547 bases of DNA, from the NCBI RefSeq assembly GCF_003334385.1, contig NZ_QOWN01000168.1; one strand, 5' to 3'. A program made the position numbers and the translations under genes. The DNA comes from Escherichia coli (lineage in GTDB: Bacteria > Pseudomonadota > Gammaproteobacteria > Enterobacterales > Enterobacteriaceae). Below the pieces are notes generated by a model. The model saw nothing but the letters and a program-made list of their open reading frames with translations. It did not search any database and was not told where the DNA came from. Shown piece by piece: positions 1 through 547 of the stretch (its first letter is position 1; the number at the start of each line of letters is the position of its first letter).

Positions 1-24
1 GTAAGCGTACAGCCTGAACCGTCT
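1..24 (+). repeat. Putative left terminal inverted repeat (IRL) of the IS66-family element; the inner boundary is approximate
   Basis: Seen in sequence: 5'-GTAAGCGTACAGCCTGAACCGTCT at the very start of the window. Established knowledge: IS66-family IRs begin 5'-GTAAGCG. The length cannot be fixed without the right end for comparison. Confidence 0.45.
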
Positions 25-71
25 GGTCAGAATCTGACGAATTAGACAAAGTGGTGTCCACCAAATAAGTA

Positions 72-473
72 GTGGGAACCAAAGTGTCAGATATGCAGAA
101 AAATGTGACTCCCGGCAGGCGAAAAGGCTGCCCTAATTATCCTCCCGAATTTAAACAGCAGCTCGTTGCTGCCTCCTGTGAACCCGGGATATCCATCTCA
201 AAACTTGCTCTTGAAAATGGCATTAACGCCAATCTGTTGTTCAAATGGCGACAACAATGGCGCGAGGGAAAGCTGCTATTACCTTCTTCAGAGAGCCCCC
301 AGCTACTTCCTGTGACTCTCGATGCAGCTGCCGAACAGCCAGAATCGCTCGCAGAGGACCCGGAAACCCTCAGTATCAGCTGTGAGGTAACGTTCCGGCA
401 CGGGACGCTCCGCTTCAATGGCAATGTCAGCAAAAAGCTCCTGACTCTGCTGATACAGGAACTGAAGCGATGA
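72..473 (+). CDS. tnpA: IS66-family accessory protein TnpA (orf1), a small predicted HTH DNA-binding protein; 133 aa from GTG72, with in-frame alternative starts at GTG84 and ATG93 (127 aa)
   Basis: Seen in sequence: intact ORF ending at TGA 471-473. Residues ~40-60 (nt ~189-251, [22 protein letters not shown]) have a helix-turn-helix-like pattern, followed by an acidic Pro/Ser/Glu-rich linker and a C-terminal leucine-rich helix ([13 protein letters not shown]). Position immediately upstream of, and overlapping, the tnpB-like ORF fits IS66 orf1. No strong Shine-Dalgarno precedes any candidate start, so the start is uncertain. Confidence 0.85.
457..460 (+). promoter_or_regulatory. Shine-Dalgarno-like AGGA for tnpB, embedded in the 3' end of tnpA
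   Basis: Seen in sequence: AGGA at 457-460, 9 nt upstream of ATG 470. Consistent with translational coupling or reinitiation at the ATGA junction. Confidence 0.4.
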
Positions 474-547
474 TCCCGTTACCTTCCGGGACCAAAATTT
501 GGCTGGTTGCCGGTATCACCGATATGAGAAATGGCTTCAACGGCCTG
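470..547 (+). CDS. tnpB: IS66-family accessory protein TnpB (orf2), N-terminal 26 codons only; 3' end truncated by the window edge
   Basis: Seen in sequence: ATG 470-472 overlaps the tnpA stop TGA 471-473 (ATGA). Translation [26 protein letters not shown] runs open to the end of the window. An AGGA Shine-Dalgarno at 457-460 sits 9 nt upstream of the ATG. The N-terminal motif matches IS66 orf2 proteins as recalled. It is absent from the ORF track only because no stop codon falls inside the window. Confidence 0.8.

Follow-up and report, generated by a model that had tools for sequence, protein, structure and literature searches.

The window is the left end of ISEc8

The 547-nucleotide (nt) stretch of Escherichia coli DNA studied here (contig NZ_QOWN01000168.1; below, the window, always at its full length) is the left end of ISEc8, an insertion sequence (IS) of the IS66 family, and our main subject is bases 72-110, where translation of its first gene, tnpA, begins. 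Over its full length the window was 99.8-99.9% identical to loci annotated as 'IS66-like element ISEc8 family transposase'. Its sequence was matched at 11104 places in 3465 of the 5426 complete E. coli genomes and was also found on many plasmids of other Enterobacterales. ISEc8 is thus very common in E. coli, yet annotations differ among three starts for its first gene. The window begins with the left inverted repeat of the element (IRL), and 22 of its initial 30 bases are matched, in inverted orientation, by the right end of a complete copy of 2442 bp; GTAAGC and C19-C20 were invariant across 45 related left ends. Full copies carry tnpA, tnpB and then tnpC, the ISEc8-family transposase gene, in this order. 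The tnpA product is the IS66-family accessory protein of ISEc8 and scored 97 bits against the model NF047595, IS66-like TnpA (cut-off 74). Target duplications were read from full copies, the window itself being without flanks, and 8-bp duplications (TCCGGGAA, AGTGATTG and AGACGTTC) surround the 2442-bp copies in loci L002, L088 and L003, respectively.

Codon 84 is the family-conserved tnpA start

The original prediction, a reading of the window on its own, had named three candidate start codons for tnpA and called the choice between them ambiguous. Its coordinates were all correct: GTG 72-74, GTG 84-86 and ATG 93-95 share one reading frame, which is bounded upstream by TAA 66-68. The ambiguity is real, as annotation pipelines give tnpA products of 126, 129 and 133 amino acids (aa). 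RefSeq/PGAP starts at ATG93 (126 aa), while other pipelines give 129 aa (MSDMQ..., from GTG84) or 133 aa (MGTKV..., from GTG72). GGGA, which had been singled out as the only purine-rich stretch, was indeed the sole Shine-Dalgarno-like one, lying 6 nt upstream of GTG84 and 15 nt upstream of ATG93. The predicted pairing with the 3' end of 16S rRNA was weak, amounting to -4.2 kcal/mol for GGGA and -2.8 kcal/mol upstream of GTG72, with none for GTG105, a fourth in-frame candidate whose codon is ATG, ATA, GTA, GTC or GTT in relatives. Three starts within eight consecutive codons are expected by chance with a probability of ∼0.006 (binomial, 3/64 per codon); this excess arises because a repeated motif, complementary to itself, contains both GTG72 and GTG84.

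To compare these codons between relatives, leaders were read from the DNA of 80 related loci in reference genomes, and a sample of 45 distinct leaders of ISEc8-like elements, ranging from Enterobacterales to Burkholderiales, was used below for conservation and covariation. The codon equivalent to 84 was GTG in 21, TTG in 20 and ATG in 4 of the 45 leaders, always in frame with the conserved domain and never another Val, Leu or Met-neighbour codon. It was preceded at 6-7 nt by GG(G/A)N in 44 leaders, and in L057, L062 and L065 it was the sole start between the upstream stop and the domain. Because codon 84 is a start in 45 of 45 leaders and the only one in three elements, we regard GTG84, on this comparative evidence, as the ancestral tnpA start. 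Within the enterobacterial clade, codons 84-92 had 1, 1 and 5 variants at the first, second and third codon position, and this mainly third-position variation is weak evidence that the segment is translated. ATG93 was present only in the enterobacterial clade, where it is well conserved.

A natural polymorphism bears on the choice between these two starts. G86A (L088:544, L089:186) turns GTG84 into GTA and is carried by both copies examined in E. coli O157:H7 EDL933. When an exact 58-mer was searched, A86 was found in at least 796 and G86 in at least 2895 complete-genome E. coli records. In GTA84 copies, translation can begin only at ATG93 or, improbably, at GTG72, so that ATG93 must be able to serve as a start. 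For the G86 copy in the window, the start in use can be judged from such comparisons in graded terms: GTG84, with about an even chance, is the most likely main start, the clade-specific secondary start ATG93 is somewhat less probable, and GTG72 and GTG105 jointly have a small share.

A predicted, covarying hairpin encloses GTG72 and GTG84

Bases 40-100 of the window were predicted to fold at -15.7 kcal/mol (z-score -3.3), and only 2 of 200 shuffled sequences folded as well. In the minimum-free-energy structure, a 17-pair helix joins a 5' arm (A1) to a 3' arm (B) that contains GTG72, GGGA and GTG84 (Table 1). For 46 of 47 distinct leaders, this hairpin was the fold of lowest free energy (-13 to -33 kcal/mol), and the Shine-Dalgarno-like bases and the codon-84 start were likewise paired in the folds of 46 of the 47.

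The helix was next examined for covariation in the 45 leaders. Its cells were paired in 82.8% of cases, compared with 33-45% when the 3' partner was slid by 1-3 columns. Changes on both sides were seen in 80 cells, compared with 34.6 ± 4.2 in shuffles, none of 500 of which reached 80, and such changes were distributed over 8 of the 17 pairs. Examples are the reverse-complementary arm pairs CAAAGTGGTTCCC/GGGAACCACTTTG in L057 and TTTGGTATCCAC/GTGGATACCAAA in L048, and the further co-changed pair of CAAAGTGATGTCCAT with ATGGACATCACTTTG among related leaders; in L086, the arms contain a perfect 15-mer. All insertions and deletions in the alignment fell in the hairpin loop. Two positions of the helix had fixed G-U pairs, one in 18 sequences and the other in 12, while A-C mismatches were scattered. 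Among relatives that are 83-91% identical, bases 45-104 were nearly invariant.

The motif is specific to its place. In 8 full elements it was confined to the left end, being absent from the vicinity of the right end and from all other parts. A covariance model matched essentially only leaders in 420 kb, with higher scores on the sense strand, a result that speaks for specificity and not as independent support, as the training sequences match by construction. From the 159-column alignment, RNAalifold returned only 10 pairs of the helix, which were shifted in register at the top; the full helix was tested explicitly as described above. No Rfam family matched the leader at gathering score, and no earlier description of a leader hairpin in the ISEc8-like branch of IS66 was found in Rfam or the searchable literature. 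The sole Rfam match in the window, isrJ on the minus strand at 470-535 (20.7 bits, gathering score 37, E 0.19), is most likely due to chance.

Two further observations concern the extent of the structure. Bases 1-130 of ISEc8 fold as a long rod (-40 kcal/mol, z-score -4.3) in which ATG93 and GTG105 are paired as well. An extended rod fold of the left end was rejected as a family feature: with the flanks shuffled and the core kept, the mean z-score was -0.56 and 6 of 45 leaders fell below -2. In the Paraburkholderia locus L054, two copies of the leader hairpin were found (2673-2721 and 2969-3017) at a distance of 296 nt, a hint that part of a left end has been duplicated.

No sense promoter was detected within the left end

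The original prediction had also found no convincing promoter upstream of tnpA. This view held up, as a consensus scan returned 0 sigma-70-like sites in bases 1-547 where 0.3 ± 0.6 were expected. TAGACA is present as the proposed -35 candidate; no acceptable -10 follows it, and it has no corresponding sense transcription start site (TSS) in EDL933. TSSs at two ISEc8 copies under 8 conditions were taken from published Cappable-seq data for E. coli O157:H7 EDL933 (supplementary tables; PMC10469882), and were placed in window coordinates via the RefSeq annotation plus alignment. Reads from repeats were evidently retained in this data set, since the same TSS positions recur in both copies. No sense TSS lay between the IS tip and tnpA in either of the two copies; the sole sense TSS upstream of tnpA was 141 nt outside the element, at one copy (PMC10469882). 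A transcript from this external site contains both hairpin arms.

Several other promoter candidates were considered and rejected. A promoter at a circle junction or borne by an inverted repeat is not apparent, as the right end lacks an outward -35 and the left tip lacks a suitably spaced -10. The -10 candidates in the hairpin loop, ATAAGT and TAAGTA, are not conserved in the family and have no matching TSS, although better versions occur in some relatives (AATAAT in L025, AATTAT in L041). CAGAAT at 28-33 has no -35 before it and no TSS was detected for it; relatives have CATAAT there (T at position 30), a 5/6 match to the -10, with which no -35 or TSS is associated. The same T weakens an ISEc8-specific palindrome, GTCAGA-A-TCTGAC at 26-38, in these relatives.

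A candidate outward promoter overlaps the start region

Under all 8 conditions and in both EDL933 copies, an antisense TSS directed out of the element was mapped to base 73, inside arm B. A candidate promoter is found at a suitable position on the minus strand (Table 1), for which the bTSSfinder output in the EDL933 paper names gtcaca/gatact (PMC10469882). At one of the copies, this TSS is listed as the TSS of the flanking gene ykgM (PMC10469882), so that the element can serve as a mobile outward promoter. No terminator-like site was found on the minus strand of bases 1-73. A second constitutive antisense TSS was listed inside tnpC, at ISEc8 ∼1758 (347115, L088:2216, and 1276473, L089:1858; PMC10469882).

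The G86A polymorphism touches this promoter too. It changes the minus-strand hexamer CACTTT to TACTTT, a better -10, and destabilises the hairpin at its base, so that the fold has -10.1 in place of -15.7 kcal/mol. Antisense activity may accordingly be stronger in the O157 A86 allele than in the G86 allele of the window. In removing the ancestral start and improving the antisense -10 at the same time, G86A provides a natural allele pair.

A model for inefficient tnpA initiation

Taken together, these data lead us to propose, with a probability of roughly 55%, that bases 72-110 are a tnpA initiation region that is built to be inefficient by hairpin sequestration, in a manner similar to IS200 and IS10. 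The conserved hairpin around the start codons would then probably keep tnpA nearly silent. What the data show directly is the layout of the region, the covariation of the helix, the conservation of codon 84 as a start and the published TSS positions; formation of the hairpin in RNA, repression of translation and the start in use are inferred. In the sense RNA, bases 45-61 would fold back on 72-88 and so bury GTG72, the weak GGGA and GTG84. Having no detectable strong sense promoter of its own, ISEc8 would be transcribed in the sense direction mainly by read-in; such transcripts would carry both arms, GGGA and GTG84 would be paired, and translation would be throttled. The outward promoter over the start region would meanwhile produce an RNA complementary to the first 73 nt of the sense transcript, which may have a function, and this outward transcript could also drive neighbouring genes. 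In this form, the hairpin offers a concrete and testable account of the missing obvious expression signals in the IS66 family.

A number of points weigh against this proposal. The hairpin of ISEc8 itself is among the weakest in the family and has a 3x3 internal loop, and the ratio of G-U to A-C in the long helix is only 43:32. The persistence of GTA84 copies implies that GTG84 is dispensable for persistence, which makes the ATG93 start of RefSeq defensible. The antisense RNA runs from base 73 to base 1 and beyond, and so misses GGGA 74-77 as well as GTG84 and ATG93. As the TSS map covers a single strain with copies of the A86 type, under 8 conditions, a weak native promoter may have escaped detection. 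Finally, A1 is also complementary to a second segment (A2), and 49-65 and 67-83 form a direct repeat. Repeats that bind a protein would look alike, and sequence by itself does not distinguish complementarity in DNA from complementarity in RNA.

Transcripts of outside origin have precedents in other elements. As Davis, Simons and Kleckner in 1985 for IS10 and Krebs and Reznikoff in 1986 for IS50 are said to have found, outside transcripts fold such that the start region is paired, while native transcripts reportedly begin inside the structure. IS10 resembles ISEc8 further in having an outward promoter near the transposase start, from which RNA-OUT, complementary to the 5' end of the sense RNA, is made (PMC5006887). 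It differs in that its native promoter pIN and the TSS are known, and in that RNA-OUT covers the ribosome-binding site, which the ISEc8 antisense RNA does not.

IS200 also has a weak, undefined sense promoter and an inverted repeat at its left end that in its RNA form sequesters the Shine-Dalgarno sequence, as is proposed for ISEc8, and its antisense transcript starts inside the leader or initiation region (PMC4513863). However, IS200 is a member of a family that is unrelated to IS66 and has one transposase gene, of the HUH type, and it has a near-consensus Shine-Dalgarno sequence plus a terminator against impinging transcription (PMC4513863). No terminator is evident in ISEc8. The antisense RNA art200 is a discrete small RNA of 90 nt that lies over the Shine-Dalgarno sequence and first codons (PMC4513863), while the ISEc8 antisense RNA starts upstream of the Shine-Dalgarno-like bases, at 73; repression has been demonstrated for IS200 (PMC4513863) and is only inferred for ISEc8. 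Because it leaves the ribosome-binding site uncovered, we do not file the ISEc8 antisense RNA in the RNA-OUT/art200 class. In ISPpu9 of Pseudomonas putida, small RNAs and the structure of the 5' untranslated region of the mRNA control transposase expression (PMC8450116); that element is of a different IS family and sequence. The general understanding of IS regulation is unchanged by our proposal, which extends a known strategy to a family for which the searchable literature holds no such description.

Alternative explanations for the complementary segments

The explanation that competes best with hairpin sequestration, although we consider it unlikely, is that the complementary segments are DNA sites for TnpA, through its helix-turn-helix, or for the transposase, and serve in autoregulation or mark the left end. 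The site would then consist of the A1-A2 palindrome plus the related repeat 67-83, and its overlap with the start codons would be incidental. In the family, the A1:A2 hairpin has 7 pairs: 87% of its cells were paired, compared with 19-51% in slid controls, and 37 double-sided changes were counted, compared with 17.5 in shuffles, so that the palindrome covaries between clades. The two segments with which the 5' arm can pair repeat each other in the same orientation, owing to the 17-nt direct repeat formed by 49-65 and 67-83 (76% identical, spacing 18), and T52, A63, T70 and A81, which are invariant, would also suit a protein site. The modest asymmetry between G-U and A-C in the long helix (given above) is why an explanation at the DNA level is a live rival.

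TnpA itself adds to this case, as it has an HTH_Tnp_1-type domain with weak similarity to the IS2 repressor TnpA model; the score against NF006928 ('IS2 repressor TnpA') was 29 bits, which is far under the cut-off of 229. IS66 TnpA shares its kind of helix-turn-helix with InsA of IS2 and OrfA of the IS3 family, and ISEc8 also has a palindrome in its leader. Unlike in the IS2 InsA type, the second palindrome of ISEc8 is unsupported, the repeats overlap no recognisable promoter, and the TnpA operator is only putative. This second local hairpin or palindrome (70-81), which would expose GGGA in its loop, was rejected for want of covariation, with 64% of cells paired compared with 67% in shuffles. 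The spacing of the repeats varies as well (18, 19 or 21 bp), with all length change within the would-be RNA loop, while the conserved start codon stays at a fixed distance. The centres of the repeats are mutually complementary (UCCC and GGGA, where 18 sequences have a fixed U-G), as an RNA helix needs and two operators do not. Two tandem palindromic operators are disfavoured by these three features, namely the unsupported 70-81, the variable spacing and the complementary centres. A transposase-binding site common to both ends was rejected since the motif is missing from right ends, and this absence speaks against the protein-site explanation in general.

Less likely still is that nothing sets tnpA apart from the many IS genes with poor signals and that its expression comes mostly from read-in, a view in line with the original prediction, where transcription was said to depend perhaps partly on read-in. 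Its observations on the weakness of the native signals stand, as there is no consensus promoter and the Shine-Dalgarno-like pairing is weak, and the fact that the sole EDL933 sense TSS upstream of tnpA lies outside the element fits read-in. What this view did not include is the covarying hairpin over GGGA and two of the starts. Plain weakness leaves unexplained both a 17-pair helix that covaries across bacterial orders and the near-invariance of 45-104 among relatives of 83-91% identity. Moreover, a helix over the ribosome-binding site should hinder read-in transcripts and not serve them, so that under the proposed sequestration read-in transcripts are predicted to be poorly translated, in place of the partial dependence on read-in that had been suggested.

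Doubtful to a slightly greater degree is a folding switch, in which A1 (45-61) would pair alternately with A2 (58-66) or B (72-88). The nascent RNA would first form the short A1:A2 hairpin, leaving the ribosome-binding site briefly free; refolding into the more stable A1:B hairpin, nucleated by the loop UCC with the GGG of the Shine-Dalgarno-like stretch, would then shut translation off. If this were true, TnpA and the coupled TnpB would be made only at the moment and place of transcription, which would endow the IS66 family with an inbuilt cis preference, and the same DNA would double as the promoter of the outward antisense transcript.

The last alternative is translation from GTG72, which would yield a TnpA of 133 aa whose N-terminus, MGTK(V/L), is conserved. 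The original prediction held that conservation upstream of ATG93 among TnpA homologues would favour the GTG starts. When distant homologues (35-50% identity) were aligned, such residues did look conserved, and many homologues were predicted to begin MGT(K)(V/L), which is the translation of GTG72-GGA-ACC-AAA-GTG and at face value favours GTG72. In addition, tblastn matches reach residue 1 of the 133-aa open reading frame in many loci, and GTG72 is the start chosen by the lister of open reading frames and by some gene callers. However, the codon equivalent to 72 was GTG in 25, ATG in 14 and the non-start GCG in 6 of the 45 leaders, the last having no start upstream. As codon 72 is GCG in some elements, the N-terminal conservation is best read as a by-product of the stem, that is, of a nucleic acid and not a peptide. 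Its bases pair with CAC or CAT, with a compensatory change from C-G to U-A in 10 sequences; codons 72-83 vary 2, 1 and 3 times by codon position, without third-position bias; no Shine-Dalgarno-like stretch lies upstream; and in a Pantoea relative, which has a frameshift farther downstream and may be degenerate, codon 72 is immediately followed by TGA. Initiation at GTG72 is therefore very improbable, and the 133-aa model of tnpA is probably wrong. The comparison thus corrects a tempting inference, in that the seemingly conserved N-terminus would be an RNA or DNA stem.

Further features of ISEc8

The features placed in the window are collected in Table 1.

Table 1. Features of the ISEc8 left end in window coordinates
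Feature	Position	Strand	Evidence or remark
IRL of ISEc8	1..29	.	Begins GTAAGCG; window starts GTAAGCGTACAGC
TAGACA, -35 candidate	43..48	+	5/6 matches
Hairpin 5' arm A1	45..61	+	Pairs with 72-88 in minimum-free-energy fold
Alternative hairpin A1:A2	52..63	+	TGGT 52-55 with ACCA 60-63, loop GUCC
Hairpin loop	62..71	+	All family length variation; holds in-frame TAA 66-68
Hairpin 3' arm B	72..88	+	Contains GTG72, GGGA, GTG84
tnpA open reading frame, longest version	72..473	+	133 aa from GTG72
GTG72, probable stem triplet, unlikely start	72..74	+	Variation of codon 72; pairing with CAC/CAT
Antisense, outward TSS	73	-	EDL933 345430 and 1274788; all 8 conditions; A86 copies
GGGA, Shine-Dalgarno-like element for GTG84	74..77	+	Pairs with UCC of 57-59
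Candidate antisense promoter	81..109	-	GTCACA 109->104, 17 nt, CACTTT 86->81, 7 nt, TSS
GTG84, family-conserved initiation codon	84..86	+	Codon conservation in 45 leaders
ATG93, clade-specific alternative start	93..95	+	RefSeq call; 5 nt past stem base
GTG105, fourth in-frame start candidate	105..107	+	Unconserved; no Shine-Dalgarno-like stretch before it
Internal sense TSS	253	+	EDL933 345610 and 1274968; only stationary-phase conditions
tnpB start	470..547	+	ATGA 470-473 overlaps tnpA stop

The internal sense TSS at 253 is preceded at 238-253 by TGT-TCAAAT, which resembles an extended -10, and would give a tnpB transcript without tnpA. Farther downstream, the TSS of tnpC coincides with the A of its ATG under all conditions and in both EDL933 copies (L088:1303-1327, ISEc8 ∼845-869), which implies that the tnpC mRNA is leaderless. 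Its -10, TAAAAT, is located in a hairpin loop; the stem of this hairpin, AAGCCCG...CGGGCTT, extends almost to the ATG.

At position 432, the window has A where four other ISEc8 copies have G, so that its TnpA has Lys in place of Glu close to the C-terminus (SKKLL in place of SEKLL), and because of this base the best identity was only 99.8%. The copy at L002:910-5776, on an E. coli chromosome, is nested inside the tnpC gene of another IS66-family element, where it is bordered by the duplication TCCGGGAA.

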